Positions 3,040-32,063 of a stretch of 32,063 bases of DNA are shown here, piece after piece. The notes under the pieces are model-generated. The model saw only the letters and a list, made by a program, of their open reading frames with translations. It ran no database searches and was not told the origin of the DNA. The stretch comes from Candidatus Hodarchaeota archaeon. Its GTDB lineage: Archaea; Asgardarchaeota; Heimdallarchaeia; Hodarchaeales; Hodarchaeaceae. The stretch is taken from the NCBI GenBank assembly GCA_016839785.1, contig JAEOTQ010000191.1:1-32063 (forward strand), given 5' to 3'. Both the position numbers and the translations under genes were made by a program. Positions within the stretch are counted from its first letter, which is position 1. The number at the start of each line of letters is the position of its first letter.

Positions 3040-4626
3040 ATGAATTGGTTACATCTAGGGGAAATGATTAAGGTCAATGCTCGTAAATATCCAAACAAAT
3101 TAGCAGTTAAGGATAGAAACCGTTCACTAACCTTCAGAGATTATGATATAAGAACAAATATGTTAGCGAACGGTTTACTCAAAAGAGGTTTGAAAAAAGG
3201 AGATAAAATAGCAGTTTTACTAAATAACTGCGTTGAATTTTTAGAAATTTATGGTGCAGCTGCAAAAGCTGGTCTTATCATTGTTCCCCTGAATTTCCGA
3301 CTTCTACCAGCTGATCTTTATTGGATAGTCCGAAATGCAGAAGTAGAAATGGTCATGGTTCAAGATAGATACTATGACATTACAATTGAAAGTTGGGATT
3401 TAATCATTGAATTTGGACTAGATAAACTTCAACATGTTTTGATAGGAGATATTCCAGTCGTAGAGAATTGGAGTTATTACAAGGATATTGTAAGAGAGGG
3501 TGAAGAACTATATCCTTCAGTACAGGTAGACCCCGAGGATACGTGGATTCTTCTATATACATCTGGTACAACTGGTAGCCCTAAGGGTGTAGTTCGCTCG
3601 CATCGCTCATACATATCTTTTTTTCTAATCAATGCAGCAGAATTCTCTTTCACTCCAGATGATTACGGTTTAGTGTTAATGCCATTATCCCATGTTAACT
3701 CTACATTTTATGGGTTTGTTTTTACATATATTGGGGCAAGCCTTTATGTTCACATTGAATATCAATTTAATCCTGAAGAAGTCTTACGAATTTTCGAACA
3801 AGAAAAAATTACATTCACTAGCATGATACCCACACATTATAATCTAATTCTTAGCCTCCCAGATGAAATCTTGAAGAAGTATGATCTTAGCTCCATTCTA
3901 TCTCTTTTAACATCCTCAGCTCCAGCTACAAAAAAGATGAAATACGAAGTTATGGAGCTTTTCAAGGGTGTAAGGCTTTTTGAGGCATATGGTTCAACAG
4001 AAGCAGGTCTAGTTACAATTTTAAGGCCAGAAGATCAGATCAAAAAAGCTGGATCAATTGGACTTGAATGCATAGGGACAGATACTATTAAAATATTAGA
4101 TAATACACGAAAGCCAGTACCTGAAGGAAAAATAGGAGAACTATTCTCTCGTGGTCCAATGCAGCATATTAAATACCATAAGTTACCAGAAAAAACTTTG
4201 GAAAGTATGGAGGATGGTTTTTTCAGTGCAGGAGATATGGCTAAAAGAGATGAGGATGGTTATTTATATCTCGTCGATAGAAAGGCGAACATGATAATTA
4301 CTGGAGGAGAACATGTTTTTCCTTCTGAGGTACAAAAGACCATTAATGAACTACCTTCTGTACTTGAATGTGCGGTGATAGGATTACAAGATTATAAATG
4401 GGGAGAGTTAGTTACCGCTATTTGTGTTCTGGGACCAGATTTTGAAGCTACCGAAGAGTTGGAAGATGAAATCAAAAACCATTGTAAAAAGGATTTAGCA
4501 AGGTTTAAGGTTCCGAAAAAGGTCTTTTTTATTGATTACGAGGATGTACCACGAACAGGCTCTGGTAAAATCATTCACAGAATTCTACGTGAGCGATACA
4601 ACGATTTACTTGCTCAAAAACATTAA
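3040..4626 (+). CDS. Acyl/aryl-CoA ligase (AMP-forming, CaiC/FadD-like)
   Basis: AMP-binding motif LLYTSGTTGSPKG, plus YGSTEAG, SAGDMA, DRKANMIITGGEHVFP and the terminal PRTGSGKI lysine motif. Confidence 0.9.
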   Translation: MNWLHLGEMIKVNARKYPNKLAVKDRNRSLTFRDYDIRTNMLANGLLKRGLKKGDKIAVLLNNCVEFLEIYGAAAKAGLIIVPLNFRLLPADLYWIVRNAEVEMVMVQDRYYDITIESWDLIIEFGLDKLQHVLIGDIPVVENWSYYKDIVREGEELYPSVQVDPEDTWILLYTSGTTGSPKGVVRSHRSYISFFLINAAEFSFTPDDYGLVLMPLSHVNSTFYGFVFTYIGASLYVHIEYQFNPEEVLRIFEQEKITFTSMIPTHYNLILSLPDEILKKYDLSSILSLLTSSAPATKKMKYEVMELFKGVRLFEAYGSTEAGLVTILRPEDQIKKAGSIGLECIGTDTIKILDNTRKPVPEGKIGELFSRGPMQHIKYHKLPEKTLESMEDGFFSAGDMAKRDEDGYLYLVDRKANMIITGGEHVFPSEVQKTINELPSVLECAVIGLQDYKWGELVTAICVLGPDFEATEELEDEIKNHCKKDLARFKVPKKVFFIDYEDVPRTGSGKIIHRILRERYNDLLAQKH

Positions 4627-4811
4627 TTTATGTGTAATTTAATTCTTCGTGATTGTACATTGAATAGAAATCTCTTGTATTTCTTGTTACTATGAATGTA
4701 ATTCACTTTTTATCTTCTTTTCAATGTCTAATATATACGAAAATTCTAAAAATACTCACTTATAATGAATTTTTACTTTCAACCATCATTTTATTAAACG
4801 GTGTTCATCAA

Positions 4812-5705
4812 ATGAAGATTCAAAATGTGAAAAAAATATGTGTTATAGGAGCAGGATTAATGGGTAATGGTATAGCTCAAGTCTGTGCTCAAGCTGGGTA
4901 TCAAGTTGCCATGAGGGACATTGAAGACCATTTTGTAGAGAAAGGTCTTTCTATGATTAATAAAAATTTATCACGTGGAGTCAAAAAAGGAAAAATGACT
5001 CAAGATCAAATGAACGAAATCCTCACAAGAATTAAAGGAACTACCGATTTGAAAGAAGCTACGGAAGGAGCTGATGTGGTCATTGAGGCTATCATTGAAA
5101 ATTTGGACTTAAAACGTAAAGTATTTGCAGAATTAGAAGAAATTTGCGATTCAAATGTAATTTTTGCTTCAAATACATCATCAATATCTATTACAGACAT
5201 GGCTGCAGCCACTAAACGTCCAAATAAGTTCATCGGTATGCATTTTTTCAACCCTGTGCCTGTGATGAGGTTGGTTGAAATAATTAAAGGATATGACACC
5301 TCAGATGAGACATATCAGTTCATTGATGAGCTTTCTCAAAAATTAGGGAAAGAGACTGTTCTTGTTAATGAAGCTCCTGGGTTCGCAGTAAATCGTCTCC
5401 TGTTACCATTCTTCCTTGAAGCAATTTTTACATTACAAGAAGGAGTAACAACGGTTGAGGATATGGATAAAGCAATAACTTTAGGTTTAAATCATCCTAT
5501 GGGTCCATTTACTTTGTTAGATTTTGTAGGTCTGGATACAACACTTTTTATAGCTGATTATTTCGTTACAGAATTTCAAGATTCTAAGTACCGTGTTCCC
5601 ACACTACTACGAAAAATGGTACGTGCAAATCATCTAGGGAGAAAAACAGGTAAAGGATTTTATGATTACTCTACTAATCCTCCTACACCTCGAAAATTCA
5701 TATAA
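4812..5705 (+). CDS. hbd: 3-hydroxybutyryl-CoA (3-hydroxyacyl-CoA) dehydrogenase
   Basis: VIGAGLMGNGIAQ Rossmann motif, ASNTSS, GMHFFNPVPVM catalytic His, HPMGPF, LGRKTGKGFY. Start set at ATG 4812 after a GGTG RBS; the ORF-track extension from 4692 is low-complexity. Confidence 0.9.
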   Translation: MKIQNVKKICVIGAGLMGNGIAQVCAQAGYQVAMRDIEDHFVEKGLSMINKNLSRGVKKGKMTQDQMNEILTRIKGTTDLKEATEGADVVIEAIIENLDLKRKVFAELEEICDSNVIFASNTSSISITDMAAATKRPNKFIGMHFFNPVPVMRLVEIIKGYDTSDETYQFIDELSQKLGKETVLVNEAPGFAVNRLLLPFFLEAIFTLQEGVTTVEDMDKAITLGLNHPMGPFTLLDFVGLDTTLFIADYFVTEFQDSKYRVPTLLRKMVRANHLGRKTGKGFYDYSTNPPTPRKFI

Positions 5706-5764
5706 TTAAGATTTGGACAGTAATAATGCAACCTTATTACAGTTCTGTCTTTTTTACCGATTTA

Positions 5765-6973
5765 TTAATTTTTAAGGACATTTATCACAATTGCAGCTGC
5801 GGAATCGCCTGCTGAACACCCTGCGAAAAGCCCATAACCTCCATTTTTTAAAGCTAATTCTTCAATAAGTTCAATGACTAATCGCATACCTGTTGGGGCT
5901 TGAGGATGCCCCCAAACGAGTGAAGACCCATAATTATTAATTGAATCAAGTGGAATACCCATTTCTCTACTAAAGTAGATATCATTGACAGTAAAGGGAT
6001 TATGAAGTTTAGTAGCACTAATGTCATCTACAGAAAGGTTAGCATATTTAAGCGCATTTTGTGCCGCAGGTACAGGTGCTGTTGGCATATAACCCTTCTT
6101 ACTCCGAGCTTGACTAAAAGATAGGACTTGGATTTCAATATCTTTGTTAAGAGATAATTCCTTTGCTTTTTCTTGAGTTGTCAAAACCAATCCACAATTC
6201 CCATCAGAAGGATGAGTTTGAGCACCATAAGTAACAGTTCCAGCCTTAAGAACAGGTTTTAGTCTTGCTAATCTCTCTGCTGTTGTTGTATGAACTCCTT
6301 CATCTTCTTCGACGTTTGCAATGATTCTCTTACCTGATTTAACTTCTACGGGGGTAATCATAAACCTTCGTAAGAATTCAGAATCATTTTTTAGCGCTTG
6401 AGCATACTGTTTATAGCGCAACAATACAACCTCTTCTTGGTCTTCACGAGTTATTCCAGCATCTCTAGCAACGTTTTCTGCTGTTTGAATCATAGGATTT
6501 TTGGCGTAGGGATCATAACCAAAATTGTCCCAGACCCAATTTTCCAGATCAGCTTTTCCTCCAGGAGCAAGAGGATTGGGATATAAAACCTGGGGACCAT
6601 TACTGGTACGATCACATGTTACAGTTAAAATGCAGTAATTGGGACTATTGCTGGTTTCTATTTCAGAGGCTGAATTTGCGATTACTCGAGCTGAGGTTGC
6701 ACATGCCTGAGCAATCATTGAACCCGTGATTGTAGGTGCACCAATAAGACCTGAAAGCCATGTTTGACCATAAAAGCTGTGTTTCTGTGGAATAGTTATC
6801 CCCAGATGAACTGAATTAAAGATTTCAGGAGGGATTTCGCATTTATTGAGAGCACGAGTCGTTATTTCAGCAGCAAATGTAATTGCATTTTGATTAGCAA
6901 AACTTCCCTGCCAGCGTACAAAGGGGGTACTCCAGTAGCATCCATATGGAATGAAGGTGTTTGAAAACTGCAT
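5765..6973 (-). CDS. Thiolase (acetyl-CoA C-acyltransferase), probably the 3-oxopimeloyl-CoA-type thiolase of the benzoyl-CoA pathway
   Basis: Catalytic Cys in QACATS, HNPF, NNYGSSLVWGHP, C-terminal GCSAG. Lies 9 bp downstream of oah on the same strand. Confidence 0.85.
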   Translation of the reverse strand: MQFSNTFIPYGCYWSTPFVRWQGSFANQNAITFAAEITTRALNKCEIPPEIFNSVHLGITIPQKHSFYGQTWLSGLIGAPTITGSMIAQACATSARVIANSASEIETSNSPNYCILTVTCDRTSNGPQVLYPNPLAPGGKADLENWVWDNFGYDPYAKNPMIQTAENVARDAGITREDQEEVVLLRYKQYAQALKNDSEFLRRFMITPVEVKSGKRIIANVEEDEGVHTTTAERLARLKPVLKAGTVTYGAQTHPSDGNCGLVLTTQEKAKELSLNKDIEIQVLSFSQARSKKGYMPTAPVPAAQNALKYANLSVDDISATKLHNPFTVNDIYFSREMGIPLDSINNYGSSLVWGHPQAPTGMRLVIELIEELALKNGGYGLFAGCSAGDSAAAIVINVLKN

Positions 6974-6982: not shown

Positions 6983-8086
6983 TCATTCATTAGTAGGTTT
7001 TGGTAGAACCATATCAATGAGCTCTTGATCAAATGGGTGAGCTTCAGCTAATAGTTGACGGTATTTAATGAAATCAATAACATCTTTTCCCGTTTGTTTT
7101 CTTTCATTAAAGGCTCTAAAACCAAGTAATGCCTCTGTGGTCATGTTAACAGATAGCCAATGACGATTAGCAAGCTTTGTTTGATCCCAAAAGAATTTTT
7201 TCTTCATTCGGATTCCATCGATAGATTTCATTAAACATCCCGGGAAAAGGTTTGCATAAGCCCAAATAGTTTCATCAATAGTTTTATCTAAAAAAGAAAG
7301 ATCAATTGTACAGCTTTTCATAAGTTGTCGTGCGTCTTTAAAGGCTTGACCGACAAGAAATTCACCGTAAATTATTTCCCCATCGTGAATATATTTATCA
7401 GTATGAACGGTAGGGTTTCTGATGAATTGGTCATCCTTTTTCAAGATTGGAACGACTTTTGAAATCATACCAAGATGTTTCATTTTGTAAGAACTCCATA
7501 ATTCACAAGAGACGCAATTCCACATAGCATCTTCAATTGAAAGCATCCAAGGAAGAAAATCTGTCGATCCACCATCTGGAGCAGAGCCATGACGAGGACC
7601 AGCTTGACCAAAAATTGCTGTATCTGCAGAGATTGTTATATCAGTAGCCATCCCAATTTCCTGTCCACCAGCCACGCGCATACCATTTGTTCGGCAAATA
7701 ACTGGTTTTTTACAATTTAATATCGCATCAACCATAGCGTTAAAGAGATCCATATAGAGGCCATATTCGTTAGGCTTACCAGAGTAATATTCAGCGTATT
7801 CTTTCGTATTTCCACCTGTACAGAAAGCTCTATCCCCTGCTCCTGTGAATACTACACTGACAACACTTCGATCCATTGAAGCTCTCGAGAAACCCGCAAT
7901 TACACCTTTTACCATTTGAGTAGTATAAGAATTTAGCTGGGCGGGATTATTAAGTATTATCCAAGCTGAATGGAGACCCTCAGCTGATTTTCTAGTTACA
8001 GGATTAACCAAGGGTCGAAGCTCATACGTAATACAAGGAGGTTCAGTTCCAAAAAATTCATCAGTCCAAAGATCATGGTTTTTCAT
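6983..8086 (-). CDS. oah: 6-oxocyclohex-1-ene-1-carbonyl-CoA hydrolase (ring-opening; Oah/BamA/BzdY)
   Basis: Diagnostic stretches AWIILNNPAQLNSYTT, AFCTGGNTKEYAEYY, NGMRVAGGQEIGMA and QAGPRHGSAPDGGSTDFLP. Confidence 0.93.
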   Translation of the reverse strand: MKNHDLWTDEFFGTEPPCITYELRPLVNPVTRKSAEGLHSAWIILNNPAQLNSYTTQMVKGVIAGFSRASMDRSVVSVVFTGAGDRAFCTGGNTKEYAEYYSGKPNEYGLYMDLFNAMVDAILNCKKPVICRTNGMRVAGGQEIGMATDITISADTAIFGQAGPRHGSAPDGGSTDFLPWMLSIEDAMWNCVSCELWSSYKMKHLGMISKVVPILKKDDQFIRNPTVHTDKYIHDGEIIYGEFLVGQAFKDARQLMKSCTIDLSFLDKTIDETIWAYANLFPGCLMKSIDGIRMKKKFFWDQTKLANRHWLSVNMTTEALLGFRAFNERKQTGKDVIDFIKYRQLLAEAHPFDQELIDMVLPKPTNE

Positions 8087-8270: not shown

Positions 8271-9470
8271 ATGATAGATTTTTCACTTGCAGAAGAACAA
8301 ATTATGCTCCGAGATAGCGTTAGAGATTTCACAGAACGTGAAATAGCCCCTAAAGTTAGCGACTATGATAAACAACAAAAAAGTCTTTATCCTGAAGTTC
8401 TTCCTAAAATGGGAGAGTTAGGTATACTTGGAGTATGTATACCTGAAAAATATGGTGGAGCAGGTTTTGATAATATCGCTCTTGCTCTTGTATGTGAAGA
8501 ATTAGAGCGAATTGATACCTCCTTAAGGGTAATTATGTCTGTTCATACTGCCTTGAACAGCTATACACTTTGGCAATGGGCAACGTCAGACCAGAAAGAA
8601 AAATATCTAATTCCACAAGCACAAGGAACAAAAATTGGTGCATTTGGTTTAACAGAGCCAGAGTGTGGTTCTGATGTTGCAAATTTACAAACACGAGCAG
8701 TCCGAGAAGGGGATGAATATATTTTAAACGGAGCAAAGCAATGGATTAGTCTTGTCGATGTAGCGGATAATTTTCTGATTTTTGCACGATTAGGAAAAGA
8801 AAAAGGTTACAAGAGTATTGTTGGATTTATTGTTGAAAAAAAATATCCAGGTGTCTCGACTAATTCTTTCCACGATAAATTAGGGATTAGAACAGGGGAT
8901 ACAGGTGAGATTATACTGCAGAATGTCAGAGTTCCAGCAGAGAATCTTCTTGGAAAAGAAACTGAAGGCTTTAAAATTGCTATGACTGCACTTGACAATG
9001 GCCGCTATACAGTTGCTGCTGGAGCTGTTGGTTCAATCAGAGCTAGTCTCGAAGCAGCAACAAAATATTCTCATGAAAGAAAAGCTTTCGGCCAAGAAAT
9101 TGGAAAATTACAATTAATTCAAGAACACATTGCATATATGCAAGCAGGATATGACCAGTCTCAGCTATTGGTATTTAAAGCAGGATGGGTAAGAAACCAA
9201 GGAATTCCAAGTACACGAGAAACAAGTATGGCAAAGTGGCAAGCTACAAATCATGCTTCTGATGCAGCCAATAGAGCGATCCAAATTCATGGAGCAATGG
9301 GATATAGTGGCGATTTCCCAGTAGAACGATCCTGGAGAAATGCACGTGCAAATACAATTCTAGAAGGGACAAATGAGATTCATAAACTAATTCAAGCTTC
9401 CTTCATACTTGGATATCGAAAGAAAGCAGAACTTCGATGCGAAATACCTCCATATAAATCAGGAGAATGA
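8271..9470 (+). CDS. Acyl-CoA dehydrogenase, candidate glutaryl-CoA dehydrogenase
   Basis: AFGLTEPECGSD, LNGAKQWIS, ERKAFGQEIG, IQIHGAMGYS, TILEGTNEI. The substrate is inferred from pathway context only. Confidence 0.85.
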   Translation: MIDFSLAEEQIMLRDSVRDFTEREIAPKVSDYDKQQKSLYPEVLPKMGELGILGVCIPEKYGGAGFDNIALALVCEELERIDTSLRVIMSVHTALNSYTLWQWATSDQKEKYLIPQAQGTKIGAFGLTEPECGSDVANLQTRAVREGDEYILNGAKQWISLVDVADNFLIFARLGKEKGYKSIVGFIVEKKYPGVSTNSFHDKLGIRTGDTGEIILQNVRVPAENLLGKETEGFKIAMTALDNGRYTVAAGAVGSIRASLEAATKYSHERKAFGQEIGKLQLIQEHIAYMQAGYDQSQLLVFKAGWVRNQGIPSTRETSMAKWQATNHASDAANRAIQIHGAMGYSGDFPVERSWRNARANTILEGTNEIHKLIQASFILGYRKKAELRCEIPPYKSGE

Positions 9471-9512: not shown

Positions 9513-10724
9513 TTACATCCTCAATCCACCATCTACTTGGAGGATAGATCCAGTCATATAGTCAGAATCAGAACTAGCTAAAAATACAGCAATCTTAGCT
9601 ACATCTACAGGATATCCAATTCGCATTTGTGGGATCTGAGCAATTGTTTGCTCCTTATAGACTGCTGGTGTACCTGCAGTCATTGCTGTATCAATATATC
9701 CTGGCATTATACAATTCACGTTAACTTTATAACGAGCTAGTTCTCTTGCTGCGGTCTTTGAAAGAGCAATGGTTCCCCATTTAGATGCTGCATACGCTGC
9801 TTGGCCAACATTACCATATTTTGCAGCTGTTGACGTGAAATTGATGATCTTTCCACCAAGAGGTCTTTTCTTCATAAAATGAGGAGCGATAGCACGGATA
9901 CAATTGAATGTACCAGTTAAATTGATATTGATAACTGAATTCCAGATATCATCAGTCATTTTTGCGATTAAAGCACTACGAGTAATACCAGCGTTGTTTA
10001 CAAGTATATCCACTCTTTGATAATTTTCTAATGCTTCCCTCACTAAACGATTGACCTCTTCAACATTTGAAACGTCACATGTAATCGCAATAGCCTCTCC
10101 TCCTAACTCCATAATCTCATTCACAAGAGAATCAATGTCTGATTTTGTCCTAGCTGCGACAACAACCTTTGCTCCTTCTCTTGCGTATTCCAAGGCAATT
10201 TCTCTACCAATCCCTTTCCCTGCTCCTGTCACAATAGCCACTTTATTCATTAATCTTTTTGCCTTAACTTTAAACTCTTCAGTCACAGCAAGTTCTTCAG
10301 AGGAGATTGTTATGTCTTTACCTCTTAGAACTCGATAAATCACTCTATCTCCCTCGATAACCTCTGGTTTTACCAGTACATCCTCACCAATCTTAAGTGG
10401 ATCAGTAACGTCATCTACCCAAGCTACTACTCTCCCACCTTCCTTTAGATCAACAACTGTTACTGTGTATGGAGCAAAACGTTCAAAACCTGCAGGAGGG
10501 ATATGGACTTCAGAAAATGACAAAACTTTACCTTTTCCTGAAAACTCTGAAGGTTCTATGAATTTATCTGTAAGACATTCTTTACAAGTTGCTCTAGGAG
10601 GATAATAGAGAGTTGAACATTGACTACACTTCGTTCCTTCTAGCCTTCCTTCTCTCAAAGCTTTCAAAAAGCGCTCACCAATCTTTGATTGGGAAATATA
10701 GTTCTTATAACCAAATTGTTTCAT
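9513..10724 (-). CDS. Fusion protein: DUF35 (Zn-ribbon + OB-fold) N-terminus and FabG-like short-chain dehydrogenase/reductase C-terminus
   Basis: N-terminal KCSQCSTLYYPPRATCKEC and GKVLSFSEVHIPPAGF..PYTVTVVDL. C-terminal VTGAGKGIG, NNAGI, S..YAASK and GSILQVDGG. One continuous ORF; ATG at 10724 follows an AGGTGA RBS that overlaps the thiolase stop codon. Confidence 0.9.
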   Translation of the reverse strand: MKQFGYKNYISQSKIGERFLKALREGRLEGTKCSQCSTLYYPPRATCKECLTDKFIEPSEFSGKGKVLSFSEVHIPPAGFERFAPYTVTVVDLKEGGRVVAWVDDVTDPLKIGEDVLVKPEVIEGDRVIYRVLRGKDITISSEELAVTEEFKVKAKRLMNKVAIVTGAGKGIGREIALEYAREGAKVVVAARTKSDIDSLVNEIMELGGEAIAITCDVSNVEEVNRLVREALENYQRVDILVNNAGITRSALIAKMTDDIWNSVININLTGTFNCIRAIAPHFMKKRPLGGKIINFTSTAAKYGNVGQAAYAASKWGTIALSKTAARELARYKVNVNCIMPGYIDTAMTAGTPAVYKEQTIAQIPQMRIGYPVDVAKIAVFLASSDSDYMTGSILQVDGGLRM

Positions 10725-10734
10725 TGTTTCATCT

Positions 10735-11877: not shown

Positions 11878-12018
11878 TATAATTCCATTCCTAAACAAAA
11901 GAAAAATTAATACTGATAATCTTGTTTTACATTTCCTGTTCATTTTTGAACAAGATAGATGTAGTTAAACTTAATAAATCTGTTGGAAAATAGGGAAAGA
12001 AGAAGAGAAATAGTTATA

Positions 12019-13065: not shown

Positions 13066-13101
13066 ATTAACAACTTCCTGTATTGTATTCATTCAAATAA
13101 T

Positions 13102-13869: not shown

Positions 13870-13905
13870 TTTTCTTCTCCACATCTTCATTTTTTCTCAT
13901 TATAG

Positions 13906-18222: not shown

Positions 18223-18240
18223 AGTCAAAGCCTCTAACAA

Positions 18241-22948: not shown

Positions 22949-22952
22949 AAAC

Positions 22953-24238: not shown

Positions 24239-26764
24239 ATGGAAAAAGTCAATATCACGATAAATGGTGCAGATTATTCTGTAGAAAAGGGAATATCAAT
24301 ACTGGAAGCAGCAGAAGTTTCTGAAATCTATATACCACGACTTTGTGCACATCCTGACTTATCATCTGCTCAAGGAATGAAACCAGTAGAATCTGTGTAC
24401 CAAGGTACGGTACAGTACAAAACTGATAATTCTTTACAAGAACATGAGGGGTGCCAACTTTGTATGGTGAAAATAGAAGGAGAGGAAGAGCTAGTAACAT
24501 CATGTAACAGAATGACAGAAGAAAATTTGAAGATTTGGACGGATACCTCCGATATCAAAGATTATCGGAGAGAGAAAATGAAGAATATTCTCTCAAGACA
24601 CCGTCATGCCTGTTTAACTTGTACTCAACAGAAAGGATGCAGTCGTGAACCTTGTTCAACGAATGTTCCAGTAGAAGAAAGATGTTGTCCAGAATTTGGA
24701 CGATGTGAATTGCAGAAAGTTGCAGAATACATTGGAATCAGAGAAGATACACCACGTTATATACCCAAGGAATTAACTGTAATTGAGGATGAACCTCTAT
24801 TTATTCGAAATTATGAGCTATGTATTGGTTGTACCCGATGTGTAAGAATATGTCGGGATGTAAAGGGAGTAGATGCACTTGGTTTCGTTTTTTCAGATGG
24901 TGAAACGATCGTAGGAAGTATTGAATCTACATTAAAAGAATCAGGATGTAAATTCTGTGGTGCTTGTGTAGAAGTATGTCCGACAGGCGCGCTATCAGAC
25001 AAAGATATTCTTTGGGCTGAACGTGAACGAGCTCTTGTTCCATGTCGCGATAATTGCCCTTTAGAAGCGGATGTTCCCCGTTATATTCGTCATATCGCTA
25101 ATAGAAATTTTGATCAAGCTGCGGCAGTTATTCGAGAGAAAACTCCTTTTCCTTCAGTACTTGGGAGGATTTGTTTTCATGTATGCGAGGAAAGCTGTCG
25201 TCGGAGTCAGATTAACGAACCAATTGCTATATGTGCACTCAAACGATTTGCCCTAAATCATGATTCAGAACCATGGAAATCACAAAGATTTACTATACCC
25301 TCTACAGGGAAAAAGATCGCAGTTGTAGGTTCTGGACCAACTGGACTCACTGCTGCTTTTTATTTAGCGAAAGCTGGCCATTCATTAACGGTATTTGAAG
25401 CTGAAGCAAACCTGGGAGGTATGCTGAGTTTTGGTATACCAAAGTATAGATTACCAAGAGAAATCCTTCAGAAAGATCTTGAATATATTTTGAACTCAGG
25501 AATAGAAATAGAAACTGATGCGATTATTGGAAAGCAATTAACTCTCGCGGATCTGGATTCTCAAGGATATGAGGCAATATTTCTAGCAATTGGGGCTCAA
25601 CAGGCAAAAAAATTGAGAATTGATGGTATAGAATCTGATAACGTGCTTTGGGGATTGGATTTTCTAAAGAATGTTAATTCAAATCTTGAAACTAAGGTAG
25701 AAGAACATGTCCTTGTTATAGGTGGAGGAAATGTTGCAATGGATGTAGCATTAACTGCTCTTCGACAAGGGGCAAGTAAAGTCCAAGTATTCTGCTTAGA
25801 ATCTAGAGAAGAGATGCCAGCCCACGAATGGGAGATTACAGAAATATTAGATGAAGGAATTGATCTTAATTGTTCATGGGGACCCTATAAGATAATTGGA
25901 AAGGATGGAAAAGTGACTGGAGTCGAATTAATTAAATGTACTAGTGTCTTTGATACCAAAGGAAATTTCAACCCTATTTTTGACGATACAATAATACATT
26001 CTGTTGATACTGACATGATAATACTGGCAATCGGACAAAAGACCGATTTATCGGTTTTAAGCACGAAAGCTGATGTCGATCTCTCTCCTGAAGGATTTGT
26101 TAGAATTAAAGAAACCACTCTAGAAACTTCCACTCCAGGAGTGTTTGCAGGAGGAGAAGTGACAGAAGGGCCCATTTCCGTTGTTGAAGCAATTGAATTA
26201 GGTCGAAAGGCTGCTCGTTCAATTGATAAATACTTAGGAGGAACTGGTGAAATCAATGAAGAACTCACAGAAGACATGGCTTCTAACCAATGGATTGGAC
26301 GTGATAAAGATTTTTACGACAAAAAACGTGTTATAATGCCAAGTTTATCAATTTCAGATCGTTTAAAAGGCTATGATGAAATAGAATTAGGTTACAATGA
26401 AGAGATGGCTGTTGAAGAAGCAGAACGATGTTTAGAATGTGATCTAAGGCTCCAGATATCATCTGTAACTTTTCCCCCAGAGAAATGGATCGAATTGTTG
26501 AAAGAGAATTTGGCAGCTGTTCCTGAAAGTGAAGGCGCGTTTCATCTTTTTGACGAAAATAAACAAATCATACTCATTCAAGGAACACAAAATCTGCAAT
26601 TTGCATTAGAAGAGCAATTAATTAGTAATCCAAAAGCTCGCTACTTTAGTTACGAGGAAGATCCCATGTATACTAAGAAAGAGAGTGAATTATTGCAGGA
26701 ATTCATGCTAGAATTCGGAAGAATGCCAGAGGGCAATGATGATCTGCAGGATGATCTTTTTTAA
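24239..26764 (+). CDS. bzdV: BzdV-like NAD(P)H:ferredoxin oxidoreductase (NuoG-like Fe-S module + GltD-like flavoprotein + C-terminal extra domain)
   Basis: [2Fe-2S] PRLC..CQLC..TSC, HRHACLTC, CIGCTRCVRIC, CKFCGACVEVCP, GltD-type PCRDNCP and ICFHVCEESC, VVGSGPTG, VIGGGNVAMD. Directly follows bzdM. Confidence 0.8.
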   Translation: MEKVNITINGADYSVEKGISILEAAEVSEIYIPRLCAHPDLSSAQGMKPVESVYQGTVQYKTDNSLQEHEGCQLCMVKIEGEEELVTSCNRMTEENLKIWTDTSDIKDYRREKMKNILSRHRHACLTCTQQKGCSREPCSTNVPVEERCCPEFGRCELQKVAEYIGIREDTPRYIPKELTVIEDEPLFIRNYELCIGCTRCVRICRDVKGVDALGFVFSDGETIVGSIESTLKESGCKFCGACVEVCPTGALSDKDILWAERERALVPCRDNCPLEADVPRYIRHIANRNFDQAAAVIREKTPFPSVLGRICFHVCEESCRRSQINEPIAICALKRFALNHDSEPWKSQRFTIPSTGKKIAVVGSGPTGLTAAFYLAKAGHSLTVFEAEANLGGMLSFGIPKYRLPREILQKDLEYILNSGIEIETDAIIGKQLTLADLDSQGYEAIFLAIGAQQAKKLRIDGIESDNVLWGLDFLKNVNSNLETKVEEHVLVIGGGNVAMDVALTALRQGASKVQVFCLESREEMPAHEWEITEILDEGIDLNCSWGPYKIIGKDGKVTGVELIKCTSVFDTKGNFNPIFDDTIIHSVDTDMIILAIGQKTDLSVLSTKADVDLSPEGFVRIKETTLETSTPGVFAGGEVTEGPISVVEAIELGRKAARSIDKYLGGTGEINEELTEDMASNQWIGRDKDFYDKKRVIMPSLSISDRLKGYDEIELGYNEEMAVEEAERCLECDLRLQISSVTFPPEKWIELLKENLAAVPESEGAFHLFDENKQIILIQGTQNLQFALEEQLISNPKARYFSYEEDPMYTKKESELLQEFMLEFGRMPEGNDDLQDDLF

Positions 26765-26796: not shown

Positions 26797-27066
26797 TTGA
26801 AAAACGGCACTGCAAAAGGAAAATCACAATTAGAGGAGAAAGGGTGGGAAAGGAAATTTATTATTGAAGAACATCGAGTGATCGAGTACGTAGAATTATA
26901 TGAATCATTGGATCAACAAGTACGAGTTGAACCTGTGATTCCCAGTGAGATGGAGGGTTGTAGTGAATGTTTTAAGGTGGAATGTAGTAGTTATCGTGTA
27001 ATCTACACACGAAGACCAAGAAAGTTCAGAACTGAAGAGAAAAAGTCCTCTAATCAGATATACTAG
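26797..27066 (+). CDS. Small hypothetical protein with CxxC, last gene of the bzd operon
   Basis: 89-aa ORF 32 bp after bzdV with protein-like composition (LEEKGWERKF..YVELYESL..VRVEP..CSECF..YRVIYTR). Confidence 0.7.
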   Translation: MKNGTAKGKSQLEEKGWERKFIIEEHRVIEYVELYESLDQQVRVEPVIPSEMEGCSECFKVECSSYRVIYTRRPRKFRTEEKKSSNQIY

Positions 27067-27109: not shown

Positions 27110-28057
27110 TTAATATTTCGTTTCCATAGCACGGACAAAAGAGGTAGTGGCCTCATTAAATGGTACAGGAATATTATGCTTGTTGCCTAATTCCACAATT
27201 TTCCCATTTAAATAATCAATCTCTGTTGGATTTCGATTCTCTATATCAATTAACATAGAAGGTTTATGATGACCCCCCTTGGATAAATATCCCATACAAA
27301 TCTTATGAAAATCTGGACCAAATGAAATACCGATGGCGTTTGTAACTGCAATACCCTCTTTAATTATTTCACTTGCGAGTTTGTTTGTATCTGTAAAGTC
27401 CATTGCATCTTTCATTGTTTGACCTGTAATTGCACATACTGGAGCTAAAGCAGAATTTAATATCACTTTCTTCCAAACAGCTGGTTGAATATCTTCGATA
27501 GAGGTTGTTTGAAATTCGGGTGAATTCATCAATTCGGCGATATCCTGAGCTTTTTCTTCCATTTGGGGTGAAATTGCACCGACAAAATTTGGTGGATTAA
27601 AAAAAGTCATATCAATCTTTCCTGGACCAACTATGTTTCCAGCATAGTTAATTACATTACGAAATGATCGTTCTCTACCGAATGTCTCTGAAATCACTTT
27701 TTCTGTGTGCAAACCATTTTGATGACTTACAATTAGAGAATCATCTGAAATTACCTCTTTTAACTCATCAACAACGTGTTTTAAATATGGTGTTTTCGTT
27801 GCAATAAAAATTAAGTTAACAGTTGATTCTTTAAGATCCTTTACAGATGTTTTTAGATGATCTGTATCAAAGTGGACTTTCATCTTGGAAACACCTTCAA
27901 TTTGTAGTCCATTTTGTTTAATCGCTTCAATATGGTCTTTCCAAATATCCACTAAAGTAACATCCACCCCTTTTTGAGACAAAAATGCTCCTAGAATACC
28001 ACCAGAAGGGCCTACTCCAACAATTGCTACATCATATTCCGACTTAGTCATTATCAA
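27110..28057 (-). CDS. panE: 2-dehydropantoate 2-reductase (PanE/ApbA family)
   Basis: IVGVGPSGG, IATKT, HQNGL, WKKVILN, PSMLIDI..RNPTEIDYLNG, VPFN. Confidence 0.85.
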   Translation of the reverse strand: MIMTKSEYDVAIVGVGPSGGILGAFLSQKGVDVTLVDIWKDHIEAIKQNGLQIEGVSKMKVHFDTDHLKTSVKDLKESTVNLIFIATKTPYLKHVVDELKEVISDDSLIVSHQNGLHTEKVISETFGRERSFRNVINYAGNIVGPGKIDMTFFNPPNFVGAISPQMEEKAQDIAELMNSPEFQTTSIEDIQPAVWKKVILNSALAPVCAITGQTMKDAMDFTDTNKLASEIIKEGIAVTNAIGISFGPDFHKICMGYLSKGGHHKPSMLIDIENRNPTEIDYLNGKIVELGNKHNIPVPFNEATTSFVRAMETKY

Positions 28058-28201: not shown

Positions 28202-28993
28202 TTACTTATTTTGTCCTTCATTAGCATAGATTGCCGCTCCTAATGCAACAAATGATTGAGGAGATTGAGGAACAGAAACAGATTTTCCTAATAGCTCTTC
28301 AAATATATTTACGATGACTGGATTGTGTGCGATAACCCCGCCTGTTAAAACAACTCTATTATCTAAACTGTCAATTTCTATAACTCGGTTGACTATAGAA
28401 TAAAATGCTCCTCGAACCATATCCTCGACTTTTGCTCCTTCTCTTATACGACTTAAAATTTCAGTTCCAGCAAACACTGTACAATAGCTACTAATTTTTA
28501 CAGGGTTTCTGGATTGTTCCCCAAGGTGATTTAACTCTTTGAGATCTATTCGTAATTTTAGGGCAAGTTCTTCAAGAAATGTACCTGTCCCAGCTGCACA
28601 CTTCCGATTCATCTTGAAACTGAAACGTTTGCCGCCTTTTATTTTAATTATCTTGGTATCTTGCCCTCCTATGTCGATAATTGTAATGTCATCCTTTGGA
28701 TATAGATATTTTGCCGCCTTTGCAGAACATGAAATTTCTGTAATATTCGAGATAGAGAAATCCTCAAGATGCGCATTCTTACGACCGAAGCCTGTTGTTA
28801 CAATATTTTTAACTTGATTCTTTTTCTTTTCGGTTGAAAGAGACTCTTCTAGTGCTTTATATGCCGCGTCTCTTAAGTTTATTCCTGAATGTACAACACT
28901 CAATCCTACTACCTTTTTTTCGGCATTAATTAAAATAGCCTTAGTAAAAGAAGAGCCAATATCAATTCCTGCAAAGAGTGAGTTATCAGACAC
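28202..28993 (-). CDS. Acyl-CoA dehydratase activase / BcrAD-BadFG-family ATPase (HgdC-like)
   Basis: GIDIGSSFTK, TTGFGR, IDIGGQDTK, MNRKCAAGTG, SSYCTVFA, LTGG, ALGAA. Confidence 0.9.
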   Translation of the reverse strand: MSDNSLFAGIDIGSSFTKAILINAEKKVVGLSVVHSGINLRDAAYKALEESLSTEKKKNQVKNIVTTGFGRKNAHLEDFSISNITEISCSAKAAKYLYPKDDITIIDIGGQDTKIIKIKGGKRFSFKMNRKCAAGTGTFLEELALKLRIDLKELNHLGEQSRNPVKISSYCTVFAGTEILSRIREGAKVEDMVRGAFYSIVNRVIEIDSLDNRVVLTGGVIAHNPVIVNIFEELLGKSVSVPQSPQSFVALGAAIYANEGQNK

Positions 28994-29034: not shown

Positions 29035-30261
29035 TTAAATTCCTGCAAGTTGTTCAATAAATGCTTCAATATTTGTTTTAGTTTGTTCCTCACTGTAAAC
29101 ATTTAAATCATTAAGATCAGCATCGATTTGTAAAGAGGGAATTCCTGTCTGATTTTGTAAACGTTTTGGCATCCCATAATTTGTGTTGGAATTATTTGGG
29201 CAAGTCCTAGCATTATGGTATATCATTCCATCAACGCTAAATTTATCCATCATTTTTTTTAGATATTTTTCTTTGCTGGATTCAGATCTATTTATGAATA
29301 ATTCAGTGTATGCTTTTGCCATACTCCTGAAAGGTTCTTGTGGATTGAAATCACTGAAGATCCAACTATTACAATAAGTTGACGCAACAATACACGTCTT
29401 CAATTCTGAAAATTGATTAGATAATGCTCTTAATTTTCCCCAGATAGGCATTCCTTCCCAAAAACATCTAAATGATTCCTCTACAACGGCTGCAATTCCG
29501 TTTTCAATCCTGAGTTTGAGTTCTTGTTCTAGCTTATCATAATATTCAACTGCAATTTCTGTTCCTCGTAAAACTACTGCAGGAAGCATATGAATACAGC
29601 CATCAAAAAACGTTAAAGGTGAGGGAATAGACGAGGCTGTTTCTAAGACAGAATTCCATTTATTACTGCACTCAAGTGAAAGTTGCAGCCTAAGTTCTAA
29701 CTTTTTTCTTTCAAAACTCTGATCTGTGATTTTTTCAAGTGTTTCTGAAATCTTTTTTATCTGTTCTTCCACAGTTTTAACATGAGTGTTAGATAATTCA
29801 TCAATGAAGGTAGGGGAATTTATTCCTAGGATTGGGACTTGAAATTCTTTTGCATAATATTTAAACCAATCTTGTACATCACGACATTGATTTGTGTTAT
29901 AAATGAGAATATCTGGTTTTGGTACTTTTTCTATACCATAGGCTCTCTTTAATCCTGTTTCCTTTTTTATATAAGCACCTATGTCACTCGTGAGATAAGA
30001 ACATATTTCTGGGGAATAACCCTGAGCCACTGCTACTGGAATGTATTTATTTGCACTTCGACTAGCGCCTAAAATGGCGGTATGATTTTCTGGATAATAT
30101 ACGTTGTAATCAAATGCTAATAGGAGTTCTGCGGGGCCTACACTAGAACACCAAGCAATGTTTTTACGTGGATCTTTTGACGCTTTATCCAAATTCTGAT
30201 AGTATTCTGTAGCTATTTTTCTAAGTTCGTGGGCAGATTTAATCTCATTTTCGGGGGTCAT
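29035..30261 (-). CDS. 2-hydroxyacyl-CoA dehydratase / benzoyl-CoA reductase beta-type subunit (HgdAB/FldBC family)
   Basis: AWCSSVGPAELL, YPENH, GYSPEICSY, NTNQC, WEGMPIW, DGMIYHNARTC, IDADLND, TNIEAFIEQL. Confidence 0.88.
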   Translation of the reverse strand: MTPENEIKSAHELRKIATEYYQNLDKASKDPRKNIAWCSSVGPAELLLAFDYNVYYPENHTAILGASRSANKYIPVAVAQGYSPEICSYLTSDIGAYIKKETGLKRAYGIEKVPKPDILIYNTNQCRDVQDWFKYYAKEFQVPILGINSPTFIDELSNTHVKTVEEQIKKISETLEKITDQSFERKKLELRLQLSLECSNKWNSVLETASSIPSPLTFFDGCIHMLPAVVLRGTEIAVEYYDKLEQELKLRIENGIAAVVEESFRCFWEGMPIWGKLRALSNQFSELKTCIVASTYCNSWIFSDFNPQEPFRSMAKAYTELFINRSESSKEKYLKKMMDKFSVDGMIYHNARTCPNNSNTNYGMPKRLQNQTGIPSLQIDADLNDLNVYSEEQTKTNIEAFIEQLAGI

Positions 30262-30366: not shown

Positions 30367-30891
30367 TTAATCAAGTTGTTTAAAATTCTCTCTGTATCGT
30401 TTTGGCAGTGTTTGATAAAGTTTAGTTGCCCACCAGCTATATTCACGGTGTGAATCGGAAAGTTTGCCAATTACTTTACCAGGAATACCTACTACAATGC
30501 TTTCATCCTCAATTATCATTTTTCTTGGCACTAATGCGCCTTCACCAATGATGCAATTGTCTCCAATCTCGGCCCAATCCCCAATTACAGCCTTTATTCC
30601 AACGAGGACATGTTTTCCCAAAGTTGCTTGATGTACAACGGCACCATGGCCAATATGACAATTTTCACTTAAAGAAGTAGTTCCGTCAGGCACCGAGTGA
30701 AAAACACAAGTATCTTGAATGTTTGATCCATTTCCTATAACAATGGAACCCCAATCTCCTCTTAGAACCGCGTTCGGGCCAATGAAACAATTTTCACCAA
30801 TTTTTACATCTCCTATAACCGTGGCAGTAGGAAATACATAAGCAGTTTCTGAAATCTCAGGTTTTTTCCCCTCAAATTCATATAATACCAT
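30367..30891 (-). CDS. Gamma-carbonic-anhydrase-like hexapeptide-repeat protein (PaaY/CaiE-like)
   Basis: YEFEGKKP, VIGDVKIG, AVLRGDWG, SNIQDTCVFH, HIGHGAVVH metal-binding histidines. ATG at 30891. Confidence 0.85.
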   Translation of the reverse strand: MVLYEFEGKKPEISETAYVFPTATVIGDVKIGENCFIGPNAVLRGDWGSIVIGNGSNIQDTCVFHSVPDGTTSLSENCHIGHGAVVHQATLGKHVLVGIKAVIGDWAEIGDNCIIGEGALVPRKMIIEDESIVVGIPGKVIGKLSDSHREYSWWATKLYQTLPKRYRENFKQLD

Positions 30892-30930
30892 TTTTAACAC
30901 AGATAGAAACAATCACTGGTAGAGATTTAA

Positions 30931-31377
30931 AGCCAATCTTCCCCATCATCACACTTAGGCCAGGTTACATTAACTACCTCTCAAGGTGTAGATGAACTAC
31001 CAATTAATCCTCATGCAAGAATTCTTGGAACTGGTGCTTCATTAATAGCAATAAGTTTTAGTACTGATAGCAAGCATTTACAGGTTATAATTGAGAAGGC
31101 CTTAAATCATCACGGTTTTTCTATCATAGAAGTGCTCTGTCCTCGCCTTACTTTTAATAAATTTAATAGCTATGACTGGTTTCATAAAAAAGGATATAGG
31201 CTTGATGAGAATAATGATCAAACCCATAATAAGGCTGTTTTCGCAAAATCACAGGATTAGGCTGATAGAATTCCTCTAGGAAATATCTACAAGTCTGAAA
31301 GGTCTTCATTACATGATATTGATCCCGTAACAAAGAATAGGATTCCTATAAAAGATCCTATTGGATTCAAAACTTAA
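30931..31377 (+). pseudogene. korB: Pseudogene: C-terminal half of a 2-oxoacid:ferredoxin oxidoreductase beta subunit
   Basis: Hand translation SQSSPSSHLGQVTLTTSQG..PINP..GASLIA..KHLQVIIEKALNHHGFSIIEVLCPRLTFNKFNSYDWF..QD*ADRIPLG. No start codon, no TPP-binding N-half, in-frame TAG at 31258-31260, and the conserved PC motif reads PR. Confidence 0.8.
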
Positions 31378-31485
31378 AGGATTGATATTCAAAAAGTATT
31401 GATGATTTTAGATAGTTTTCAACCCATAGAATCAGTGAAAACACTTATCCCATGATTATACAATTGAAATTGGAGTGATAAAATT

Positions 31486-32063
31486 ATGTATAAGAATCTA
31501 AATTTTGAAGTTACAGATGAAGGTATTGCTATACTTAAATTCACAAGAACTAAAGCACTTAATGCTATTAACAATGAAACAGCGAAAGAATTAGACCAAA
31601 TCATTCACATAGTCGAAAACGATTCCTCGATACGAGTTTTAGTGTTCCAAGGATCTGGTAAAGCATTCGTTGCGGGCGCTGATATTTCAGAATTCAAAGA
31701 AAGATCTGTTGTTGAGACAAAAACCTTTTCTCAATTTTTGCAAAATATTTATAACCGGATTGAAATGTTACCAATGCCAATGATAGCGGCAATTAACGGG
31801 TATTGTCTTGGTGGTGGATTAGAGCTGGCAATGGCCTGTGATCTTCGAATTGCATCATCAAAAGCCATATTTGGACAACCAGAAATAAAATTAGGGTTAA
31901 TCCCTGGTGCAGGAGGAACACAACGCCTTCCACGATTAATAGGAAAGACTATGGCAAAAGAATTAATTCTTCTTGGAGAATCAATTAATGCGGAAAAAGC
32001 ATTATCAATTGGGCTCTTAAATAAAGTTGTAGATCCTGAAAAACTGGAAATAACTGTTATGGA
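31486..32063 (+). CDS. crt: Enoyl-CoA hydratase (crotonase), 3'-truncated by window edge; not in the ORF track
   Basis: Hand translation MYKNLNFEV..KALNAIN..KAFVAGADISEF..AAINGYCLGGGLELAMACDLRIAS..FGQPEIKLGLIPGAGGTQRLPRLIG. GGAGTGA RBS upstream. Confidence 0.9.
   Translation, partial: MYKNLNFEVTDEGIAILKFTRTKALNAINNETAKELDQIIHIVENDSSIRVLVFQGSGKAFVAGADISEFKERSVVETKTFSQFLQNIYNRIEMLPMPMIAAINGYCLGGGLELAMACDLRIASSKAIFGQPEIKLGLIPGAGGTQRLPRLIGKTMAKELILLGESINAEKALSIGLLNKVVDPEKLEITVM

Follow-up and report, generated by a model that had tools for sequence, protein, structure and literature searches.

Does the locus studied here give an Asgard archaeon the means to reduce and open the aromatic ring of benzoyl-coenzyme A (benzoyl-CoA) anaerobically, and is the DNA that carries it archaeal at all? 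The locus is a stretch of 32,063 nt (contig JAEOTQ010000191.1 of assembly GCA_016839785.1), hereafter the window, which was analysed over its whole length with an open reading frame (ORF) listing and with Pfam and NCBIfam profile searches, and across which 30 genes were called. An original prediction for this DNA had proposed an apparently complete anaerobic benzoyl-CoA ring-reduction and beta-oxidation pathway in a probable archaeon, and each gene that it named was recovered in place by the ORF listing and the profile searches. At a probability of roughly 85%, our comparisons indicate that the window is an Asgard chromosomal segment that encodes a bzd-type central pathway of anaerobic benzoyl-CoA degradation, as in Azoarcus/Aromatoleum. 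Specifically, its genes fall into three main transcription blocks, namely the bzd block on the + strand, a dch/had/thiolase-like/DUF35-short-chain dehydrogenase (SDR) block on the - strand (13890 to 9513) and an oah/thiolase block on the - strand (8086 to 5765).

A class I benzoyl-CoA reductase operon

The genes bzdN, bzdO, bzdP and bzdQ, a ferredoxin gene and a BzdV-like gene form a single + strand operon with intergenic gaps of -11 to 78 bp, and a GNAT gene upstream and an 89-aa ORF downstream lie in the same run. BzdN (19650..20819, +), the [8Fe-9S] double-cubane subunit, scores 484.9 bits against TIGR03190 (cut-off 453.8), and BzdO (20831..22144, +), which binds the substrate and carries the catalytic [4Fe-4S]-OH2 cluster, scores 690.6 bits against TIGR03191 (cut-off 448.6). 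In line with these scores, BzdO aligns with chain 8s02_A, the BzdO of the solved Aromatoleum BzdNO (PMC11971306), at 663 bits, with 67 of 102 positions identical in the first aligned block (counted by eye), and BzdN aligns with the solved BzdN chain 8s02_B at 465 bits. The latter alignment begins at query residue 16, and the real start of BzdN probably lies a few codons downstream of the called one. Two ATPase subunits of the BcrAD/BadFG family are encoded beside bzdN and bzdO. BzdQ (22938..23834, +) passes TIGR03192 with 421.8 bits (cut-off 380.2); the BzdP-like ATPase (22160..22948, +; Pfam BcrAD_BadFG) passes only the activase domain model TIGR00241 (224 bits, cut-off 125.4), and no BzdP-specific model is among its NCBIfam matches.

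The gene in the bzdM position (23873..24160, +) encodes a 2x[4Fe-4S]-type ferredoxin with 8 Cys in 95 aa and matches to the Pfam Fer4 families, which by analogy with BzdM (PMC5658619) is likely the electron donor of the reductase. Next to it, an 841-aa BzdV-like flavoprotein of the 2Fe-2S/4Fe-4S/GltD-type NAD(P)H class (24239..26764, +; Pfam Fer2_4, Fer4_Nqo3, Fer4_20 and Pyr_redox_2; NF009410 464.8 bits, under the cut-off of 516) represents a putative ferredoxin-regenerating oxidoreductase; BzdV itself is termed a 'putative NADPH:ferredoxin oxidoreductase' in PMC5658619. The operon bzdN-O-P-Q-M-V that had been predicted is therefore present and tightly spaced on the + strand, with the ferredoxin as M and the BzdV-like protein as V, and its assignment to the ATP-dependent class I agrees with the equivalog scores, with the high-scoring alignments to the solved subunits and with the conservation of catalytic residues described below.

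To place this operon among its relatives, BzdO was scanned against one genome per species, which returned 335 relatives of which the best 80 were retained, and all window proteins were compared by tblastn with 80 loci (numbered L below). Counts upstream of the operon come from the 32 Asgard-side loci with at least 6.5 kb of upstream sequence, and counts downstream from the 29 Asgard-side loci with at least 9 kb of downstream sequence. BzdP, BzdQ and the ferredoxin each occur in 29 of 29 such loci, and the BzdV-like protein in 27 of 29.

We infer the activity of these enzymes, and every step of the following mechanism, from characterised bacterial enzymes. ATP hydrolysis by BzdP and BzdQ would drive electrons from the ferredoxin through the [8Fe-9S] cluster of BzdN and on to the [4Fe-4S] cluster of BzdO, which bears a water ligand and at which benzoyl-CoA would be converted to cyclohexa-1,5-diene-1-carbonyl-CoA, and the BzdV-like flavoprotein would probably re-reduce the ferredoxin. 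The Dch-like, Had-like and Oah proteins would then carry out hydration, oxidation and hydrolytic ring opening to 3-hydroxypimelyl-CoA, and the dehydrogenases, thiolases, acyl-CoA dehydrogenase and crotonase of the window would serve part of the later beta-oxidation.

Active-site residues of BzdN and BzdO

PMC11971306 names C95, C128 and C380 as cluster ligands and E65 and H131 as catalytic residues of BzdO, lines the benzoyl pocket with W46, Y97, Q274, Y298, L302 and L383, and singles out R53, R267, R290, H330, S239 and Q324 of BzdN. These residues were mapped via pairwise alignments to 8s02 and checked in alignments with 72 BzdO and 55 BzdN relatives translated from the loci. Every one of the BzdO ligand, catalytic and pocket residues is kept in the window and likewise in 72 of 72 relatives, and the window BzdN keeps all the residues singled out for that subunit, as do the 55 BzdN relatives apart from the variations given below. 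Of the eight Cys in the solved BzdN chain, the window keeps seven; the six ligand Cys are not individually named in the sections of that paper on these residues. Three positions vary. At the position of Ser44 of Aromatoleum BzdO, whose side of the active site hydrogen-bonds the catalytic Glu through this residue, the window (residue 42) and 72 of 72 relatives have Gly. In BzdN, Met replaces Q324 (window residue 334) in 17 of 30 Asgard-labelled sequences, and Trp replaces H330 (window residue 340) in 3 of 30.

BzdN and BzdO belong to the Pfam family HGD-D, which they have in common with 2-hydroxyacyl-CoA dehydratases, and their next-best solved relatives are HadB and HadC of 2-hydroxyisocaproyl-CoA dehydratase, so that they might be taken for dehydratase subunits of amino-acid fermentation instead of a reductase, as the original prediction had itself cautioned. 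The solved HadB and HadC, however, reach only 101 and 167 bits to BzdO and BzdN, versus 663 and 465 bits for the solved reductase subunits, and the HadB and HadC equivalog models stay below their thresholds (126 bits, cut-off 750; 191 bits, cut-off 700), whereas both Bzd models pass at 691 and 485 bits. In particular, the position of H131, which is Ala in HadB according to PMC11971306, is His in the window and in all 72 relatives, and BzdN keeps the cysteine pattern of the [8Fe-9S] protein; by contrast, a separate HadB-like gene of the window (29035-30261) has Val at the H131 position. Because the equivalog models pass and the BzdNO residues are conserved, BzdN and BzdO are not amino-acid dehydratases, and we consider that identity exceedingly improbable. 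As judged by active-site comparison with the 2025 BzdNO structure, the predicted Asgard reductases are canonical, which makes them good candidates for heterologous assay.

Taxonomic origin of the contig

No ribosomal or other phylogenetic marker gene lies within the window, and Rfam and tRNA scans of it gave no match, so its placement rests on the window genes and on the submitters' labels of their relatives. Fifty of the best 80 BzdO relatives are at least 82% identical to the window BzdO, and 49 of these 50 bear the title Hodarchaeota, Heimdallarchaeota, Promethearchaeota (Loki), Hermodarchaeota, Odinarchaeota or 'uncultured archaeon'; among the 50 are two closed Asgard chromosomes (CP070695.1 and CP070831.1; L006 and L037). 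The other 30 reach 67-75% identity and come from bacteria (Planctomycetota, Ignavibacteriota, Bacteroidota, Gemmatimonadota and others) and two Thermoplasmata. In line with this division, a protein search with BzdO lists proteins without a name at 98% identity and, among named ones, those of Hodarchaeales, Candidatus Hodarchaeum mangrovi and B3_Heim at 92-93%, with a gap in identity from 83% to 75%; overall, the window BzdO shares 92-94% identity with its Hodarchaeales/Heimdallarchaeia counterparts. In an unrooted BzdO tree of 73 rows, built by a 'quick' method from the best 80 relatives after exclusion of eight loci with matches shorter than 400 aa, and containing no Azoarcus, Thauera, Geobacter or Ferroglobus sequence, the 47 Asgard-side rows (window included) are split off by a branch of length 0.3 with support 100, and the window falls within a 6-row Hodarchaeota/Heimdallarchaeota group with support 96.

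Beyond the reductase, the window is collinear by blastn with L005 over 19.5 kb, L001 over 18.1 kb, L004 over 15.3 kb (one block, 81.8%) and L002 over 14.7 kb. The nucleotide identity is about 80%, and the window is therefore a relative, not a copy, of these genomes. Oah, which lies in the left part of the window beyond the coverage of the loci, has its best named matches, at 76-85% identity, in the Asgard groups Hodarchaeota, Hodarchaeales, Hermodarchaeota and Heimdallarchaeota, and a MinD-like flank gene (578-1384) is nearest to archaeal clusters. The tetranucleotide correlation r is 0.95-0.96 among the quarters of the window and 0.96-0.98 to Hodarchaeota/Heimdallarchaeota loci, with values of 0.26-0.92 to five non-Asgard loci (four bacterial, one Thermoplasmata). 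The G+C content is 0.33-0.40 along the entire window, so the earlier description of it as AT-rich is correct.

The contig could instead be bacterial, or a bacterial/archaeal chimera misbinned as Asgard, an outcome that the original prediction had named as fatal to its proposal. The relatives all come from metagenome bins, a near-identical BzdO is found in a bin titled Halanaerobiales (L032), and the next-nearest relatives of BzdO and Oah, at 68-75% identity, are bacterial or Thermoplasmata. Against this, the cluster sits on the two closed Asgard chromosomes, the collinearity over 15-19 kb extends to four independent contigs and takes in non-pathway genes (GNAT, MoaD, PanE), the tetranucleotide composition is uniform between quarters, and the MinD-like flank gene has an archaeal affinity. 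Neither the collinearity, nor the composition, nor the flank genes of the window gave any sign of a chimera, and a bacterial or chimeric origin appears very unlikely to us. Points that nevertheless weigh against the Asgard pathway reading on the taxonomic side are that the taxon labels are the submitters' titles of metagenome bins, that one Asgard-side relative bears the Halanaerobiales title, and that the BzdO tree has the method and sampling given above. The Halanaerobiales-titled locus is a contig of 7.9 kb (DAOVRZ010000160.1) whose BzdO lies inside the Asgard clade and is almost the same as the BzdO of a Heimdallarchaeota bin (L025); the contig was probably assigned to the wrong bin. Taken together, the BzdO relatives, tree, collinearity, Oah, MinD and composition agree in assigning the contig, on sequence grounds, to the Asgard archaea, closest to Hodarchaeales/Heimdallarchaeia, and what had been offered as 'archaeal, possibly Asgard' can be stated more firmly.

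Ring opening, beta-oxidation and pathway completeness

The candidate ring-opening genes, of the Thauera/Azoarcus type, lie in two - strand operons. Oah (6983..8086, -) matches TIGR03200 over its full length at 557.5 bits and passes the equivalog cut-off of 464.45, the BadI model giving only 108 bits; 9 bp downstream follows a thiolase of the acetyl-CoA C-acyltransferase type (5765..6973, -; Pfam Thiolase_N/C; TIGR01930 189 bits, below the cut-off of 240.55). The second operon begins with a dch-like gene (13102..13890, -) and a had-like gene (12019..13092, -). Dch-like genes occur near bzd in 24 of the 32 Asgard-side loci, and in 23 of the 32 an orthologue of the Had-like protein (72-90% identity) is encoded no more than 10 kb from bzdO.

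Genes suited to the flanking steps surround these operons. Behind the had-like gene lies a thiolase-like gene of the DUF35-pairing type (10735..11943, -; NF004720 480 bits, cut-off 420; 186 bits to the model of BbsB, benzoylsuccinyl-CoA thiolase), whose product is 84-86% identical in L001 and L005. It is followed by an ORF with an uncertain start codon (9513..10778, -) that fuses a DUF35 zinc-ribbon/OB-fold to a FabG-like SDR (Pfam zf-ChsH2, OB_ChsH2_C and adh_short in one ORF). This ORF shares 44 nt with the end of the thiolase-like gene upstream and is part of one operon with the Dch-like and Had-like genes. The DUF35-SDR and thiolase-like proteins may form a scaffolded 3-hydroxyacyl-CoA dehydrogenase/thiolase pair. 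On the + strand lie an acyl-CoA ligase (3040..4626; Pfam AMP-binding and its C-terminal domain) with orthologues of 63-67% identity near bzd in 15 of the 32 Asgard-side loci, a 3-hydroxyacyl/3-hydroxybutyryl-CoA dehydrogenase (Hbd; 4692..5705; Pfam 3HCDH_N and 3HCDH; NF004474 421.4 bits, cut-off 408), an acyl-CoA dehydrogenase of the glutaryl-CoA or butyryl-CoA type (8271..9470) and a short-chain enoyl-CoA hydratase (crotonase) that is cut by the window end (31486..32061; Pfam ECH_1; NF004475 244 bits over 192 of ~260 residues). Thus, the dch-had and oah-thiolase operons, the acyl-CoA dehydrogenase, the crotonase, Hbd, the second thiolase and the CoA ligase of the original prediction are all present.

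A number of these assignments fall short of what a benzoyl-CoA pathway would lead one to expect, and they count against reading the window as such. The best NCBIfam match of the Had-like protein, TIGR03201, gives 224.6 bits against an equivalog cut-off of 338.65, and that of the Dch-like protein, TIGR03189, gives 185.8 bits against 292.5, with a generic crotonase model only 11 bits lower (175). The best 25 NCBIfam matches of the ligase include no benzoate-CoA ligase model; the best is a long-chain fatty-acid CoA ligase model (414 bits, below the cut-off of 476), and the top solved relatives of the ligase are FadD5 (225 bits), feruloyl-CoA synthetase (223 bits) and also malonyl-CoA ligase. The acyl-CoA dehydrogenase passes neither AcrC (363 bits, cut-off 640) nor the non-decarboxylating (Desulfococcus-type) glutaryl-CoA dehydrogenase model (344.7 bits, cut-off 470), and it is closer to the solved structures 4l1f (323 bits) and 5ol2 (301 bits), deposited only as 'acyl-CoA dehydrogenase', than to the glutaryl-CoA dehydrogenase 3mpi (269 bits). 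We take 4l1f and 5ol2 to be butyryl-CoA dehydrogenases. Neither glutaconyl-CoA decarboxylase nor Etf was found in the window by Pfam or NCBIfam. Furthermore, an ATP-consuming class I reductase is energetically awkward for a presumed fermentative strict anaerobe, a point that bioRxiv 10.1101/763623 also makes.

The position of the Had-like gene beside the Dch-like gene and bzd in 23 of 32 loci supports its role but not its formal membership of the family. Taken together, the central steps (reductase, hydratase, dehydrogenase and hydrolase) are covered in the window by predicted genes, whereas the peripheral and lower steps are not demonstrably all encoded there. The claim of an apparently complete route to acetyl-CoA therefore went too far, given the sub-cut-off Dch and Had scores, the missing benzoate-CoA ligase match, the ambiguous acyl-CoA dehydrogenase and the lack of a glutaconyl-CoA decarboxylase in the window. 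The missing ligase and lower-pathway genes may lie elsewhere in the genome; the assignment of individual proteins to beta-oxidation steps is putative, and acetyl-CoA is the presumed end point.

An aldehyde oxidoreductase cassette between dch/had and bzdN

In the window, dch/had and bzdN are parted by a cassette around a tungsten-type aldehyde:ferredoxin oxidoreductase (AOR; 16330..18240, -; Pfam AFOR_N and AFOR_C). It is flanked by a poly-[4Fe-4S] subunit that is AorA-like (15828..16328, -) and by a small protein of the MoaD/ThiS family (18403..18732, -; Pfam ThiS; TIGR01687 46.6 bits, below the cut-off of 49.5). Beyond the cassette lies a gene for a soluble Fe-S protein with two CCG domains of the HdrD/TfrB/GlpC-like type (14233..15831, +; Pfam CCG x2; TfrB model 158 bits, sub-cut-off), which has 532 aa, 19 Cys, no hydrophobic segment and about 200 N-terminal residues without a family match. 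The CCG gene is convergent with the AorA-like gene.

Such a gene trio superficially resembles the set BamB, BamC and BamD, and the genes at 14233-18240 could in principle encode a BamBCD-like, ATP-independent class II reductase in a host with both classes. In the Bam complex, BamB belongs to the AOR family, BamC is a poly-ferredoxin and BamD is HdrD-like. The AOR of the window, however, scores 354, 344 and 319 bits to the true aldehyde oxidoreductases 1aor, 9mqx and 8c0z, versus 245 bits to BamB (4z3w), where the best stretch covers only residues 15-232, and the AorA-like protein scores 131.6 bits to its best solved relative, the Fe-S subunit of an aldehyde oxidoreductase (8c0z_C), versus 48 bits to BamC (4z3w_E); the CCG gene, moreover, is on the opposite strand. 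On these solved-structure scores, which place neither protein with BamB or BamC, the class II candidate was rejected, and we give it almost no credence.

The aldehyde oxidoreductase cassette itself recurs. The AorA-like/AOR/MoaD-like genes stand directly upstream of bzdN in 8 of the 32 Asgard-side loci, and also in L004, whose flank is shorter, and the cassette is found at 43% identity in one Thermoplasmata locus (L053). The cluster thus occurs in distinct layouts, with at least two upstream arrangements among the Asgard-side loci. In most Loki- and Hermod-labelled loci, Dch, Had and bzdNOPQ are co-directional; in L064, a divergent block lies upstream of them that comprises MaoC, a HadB-like gene (586-1818), a thiolase, a ligase and a second MaoC. 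In the layout of the window and its nearest relatives, Dch and Had are inverted and parted from bzdN by the CCG, AorA-like, AOR, MoaD-like and GNAT genes. The CCG gene is present in four loci of the AOR layout; its product is 50-60% identical in L001, L002, L005 and L011, where neighbours are better conserved (65-89%), and it adjoins an inverted Dch gene in L001, L002 and L005, with Had beyond it in L001 and L005. No description of this AOR layout was found in the main texts of the literature searched.

The HadB-like gene, the second activase and possible feeder substrates

Downstream of the bzd block, three - strand genes form a further group. The HadB-like gene (29035..30261, -; Pfam HGD-D) encodes an orphan subunit that scores 209 bits against the HadB model (cut-off 750) and, among solved structures, 163 bits to HadB, 110 to MbdO and 72 to BzdO. 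It keeps the three cluster Cys and the Glu and has Val at the H131, Met at the Q274 and Trp at the L302 position, a pattern shared by 18 of 18 aligned family members. Its family is large and unnamed, with 7464 matches among 8000 candidates scored, labelled only '2-hydroxyacyl-CoA dehydratase subunit D'. Adjacent lie a second activase ATPase of the acyl-CoA dehydratase type (28202..28993, -; TIGR00241 212 bits, cut-off 125.4) and a 2-oxoacid (ketopantoate-type) reductase of the PanE/ApbA family (27110..28057, -; TIGR00745 180 bits, cut-off 141), every solved relative of which is named 2-dehydropantoate 2-reductase, names that do not discriminate its function.

These genes raise the possibility, to our minds a tentative one and one that would extend rather than replace the pathway described above, that the cluster chiefly funnels aromatic acids and aldehydes derived from protein or lignin into benzoyl-CoA, and not free benzoate. 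The proposed substrates are phenylpropanoids, aryl-2-oxo and aryl-2-hydroxy acids and aromatic aldehydes. The ligase, thiolase and hydratases would perform side-chain beta-oxidation, the PanE-like reductase, activase and HadB-like subunit would form a route resembling that of an aryl-lactyl-CoA dehydratase, and the AOR would oxidise aromatic aldehydes and pass reduced ferredoxin to the reductase. The feruloyl-CoA synthetase among the ligase's relatives, at the score given above, and the lack of any benzoate-CoA ligase match are consistent with this, as are the grouping of ligase, thiolase and HadB-like gene with two MaoC hydratases in the Loki/Hermod layout (L064), the cassette between dch/had and bzdN in Asgard-side loci and its Thermoplasmata counterpart, and the affinity of the AOR and its Fe-S subunit to aldehyde oxidoreductases, 8c0z included. 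Additionally, HadB-like homologues of 45-58% identity stand beside bzd in 10 of 22 non-Asgard loci, Ignavibacteriota and Bacteroidota among them. On the other hand, no partner dehydratase subunit lies beside the HadB-like gene in the window or in L064, and the known 2-hydroxyacyl-CoA dehydratases are, to our knowledge, heterodimers; the PanE-family matches are all named ketopantoate reductase, adjacency by itself is weak evidence, and the substrates of these proteins are predictions.

A more specific form of the idea, which we hold to be rather doubtful, is that the Hodarchaeales-type layout wires the reductase to an AorAB-type AOR module with MoaD-like and CCG proteins and to a module of an orphan, single-subunit HadB-like radical enzyme, its activase and the PanE-like 2-oxoacid reductase, forming an aromatic funnel to benzoyl-CoA in which aldehyde oxidation would supply the very low-potential ferredoxin. 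If true, this would be a previously undescribed coupling of aldehyde oxidation to ATP-dependent ring reduction, and a large HGD-D subfamily that is so far uncharacterised would gain a function. The cassette and the HadB-like/activase pair offer testable leads on the feeding substrates and on the source of reduced ferredoxin.

Other genes and features of the window

The GNAT acetyltransferase (19116..19586, +; Pfam Acetyltransf_1) ends 63 bp upstream of bzdN and occupies the position directly upstream of it in 10 of the 32 Asgard-side loci; it could be a regulator. Weaker GNAT homologues (30-42%) are found near bzd in two Thermoplasmata loci (L053 and L080), a Gemmatimonadota locus (L076) and an Eubacteriales-titled locus (L078). 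The 89-aa ORF that follows the BzdV-like gene (26797..27066, +) has 3 Cys and no Pfam or NCBIfam match; homologues occur in 23 of the 29 Asgard-side loci at 48-84% identity and in two bacterial loci (L072 and L076) at 33-45%. A PaaY/gamma-carbonic-anhydrase-like hexapeptide protein (30367..30912, -; Pfam Hexapep) scores 171.8 bits against the PaaY model, below its cut-off of 319.6. Upstream of the ligase lie two small putative winged-helix regulators (1429-2508, -), of which one (201 aa) matches TrmB weakly and the other (95 aa) has a helix-turn-helix-like sequence but no family match; the ~530 bp that follow (2509-3039) hold no ORF longer than 60 aa and no Rfam match. A repeat scan of the window returned only short matches in two copies (20-24 nt) and neither arrays nor ends of mobile elements. 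Several genes inside the range of the original prediction went unmentioned there, namely AOR, AorA-like and MoaD-like, the CCG protein, GNAT, DUF35-SDR, PanE-like, the activase, HadB-like and PaaY-like.

Comparison with known systems

Benzoyl-CoA reductase capacity in Asgard archaea has already been reported, and the finding made here is well supported but not new. In 2019, bioRxiv 10.1101/763623 described a Bzd-class reductase in Loki-, Thor- and Heimdallarchaeota bins from the Costa Rica margin. In 2021, PMC8163825 described four Hermodarchaeota genomes in which the bcr genes sit together on one contig and in which Dch, Had and Oah genes also occur, the contig of one of them additionally carrying BzdV, ferredoxin, Dch and Had. 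It further reported transcripts resembling bcr genes and, among the 118 genomes surveyed, Bcr genes in those of 3 Heimdallarchaeota, 3 Lokiarchaeota and 4 Hermodarchaeota. In the text of PMC8163825, the mention of AOR is generic and unrelated to a bzd neighbourhood. PMC8072921 discusses the same route for Asgard bins, and PMC8027215 gives isotope-probing evidence for a role of Loki-3 in lignin/humic degradation. In the papers examined that name both Hodarchae and benzoyl-CoA, the mention is confined to reference lists; database names for Bzd and Oah proteins are already given in Hodarchaeales genome bins at NCBI. The novelty that the original prediction implied is thus not borne out, Asgard Bzd-type clusters having been published in 2019-2021 and such proteins having been named by NCBI.

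What the window adds is one more well-preserved, single-piece Asgard contig with a class I reductase and ring-opening genes. This contig adds weight to the existing genomic evidence that anaerobic attack on aromatic rings in sediments is within the capacity of the eukaryotic ancestor's relatives, and it opens no new question. The AOR cassette and the orphan HadB-like/activase pair look less described, and the AOR-linked layout and this pair are the only parts that might repay more work.

Compared with the cluster bzdNOPQMSTUVWXYZA of Azoarcus/Aromatoleum sp. CIB (PMC5658619), the window has bzdNOPQ, then the ferredoxin, then the BzdV-like gene in the same order, shares the Dch/Had/Oah type of ring opening, and keeps the cluster ligands and the catalytic Glu and His. 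Unlike that cluster, its host is archaeal, its dch/had and oah genes stand in separate inverted operons and not downstream of bzdV, a BzdA-type benzoate-CoA ligase equivalog is absent from the window, S44 of Aromatoleum BzdO is replaced by Gly, and the AOR cassette, GNAT and the HadB-like/activase pair are interleaved.

With the Hermod-, Loki- and Heimdallarchaeota clusters, the window shares the enzyme clade (BzdO 83-94% identical), the core of bzdNOPQ, ferredoxin and BzdV, and nearby Dch and Had genes; unlike the common Loki/Hermod layout, in which ligase, thiolase and HadB-like genes lie upstream, its Dch-Had pair is not co-directional with bzdNOPQ. The cultured archaeon Ferroglobus placidus, which according to PMC6500515 has the genes to break down benzoate anaerobically by way of benzoyl-CoA, resembles the window host in being an archaeon with anaerobic benzoyl-CoA pathway genes, but no Archaeoglobi record is among the best 80 of the 335 BzdO relatives, so Ferroglobus is not the nearest source.

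The cassette, finally, resembles AorABC (8c0z), presumably the aldehyde oxidoreductase of Aromatoleum aromaticum, in its catalytic subunit, in the adjoining poly-[4Fe-4S] subunit, each at the score given above, and in the MoaD-like gene. The AorC-type subunit is the flavin adenine dinucleotide (FAD) subunit of AorABC; unlike in that enzyme, no FAD subunit is recognised beside the window AOR, and the convergent CCG Fe-S protein is found there instead.

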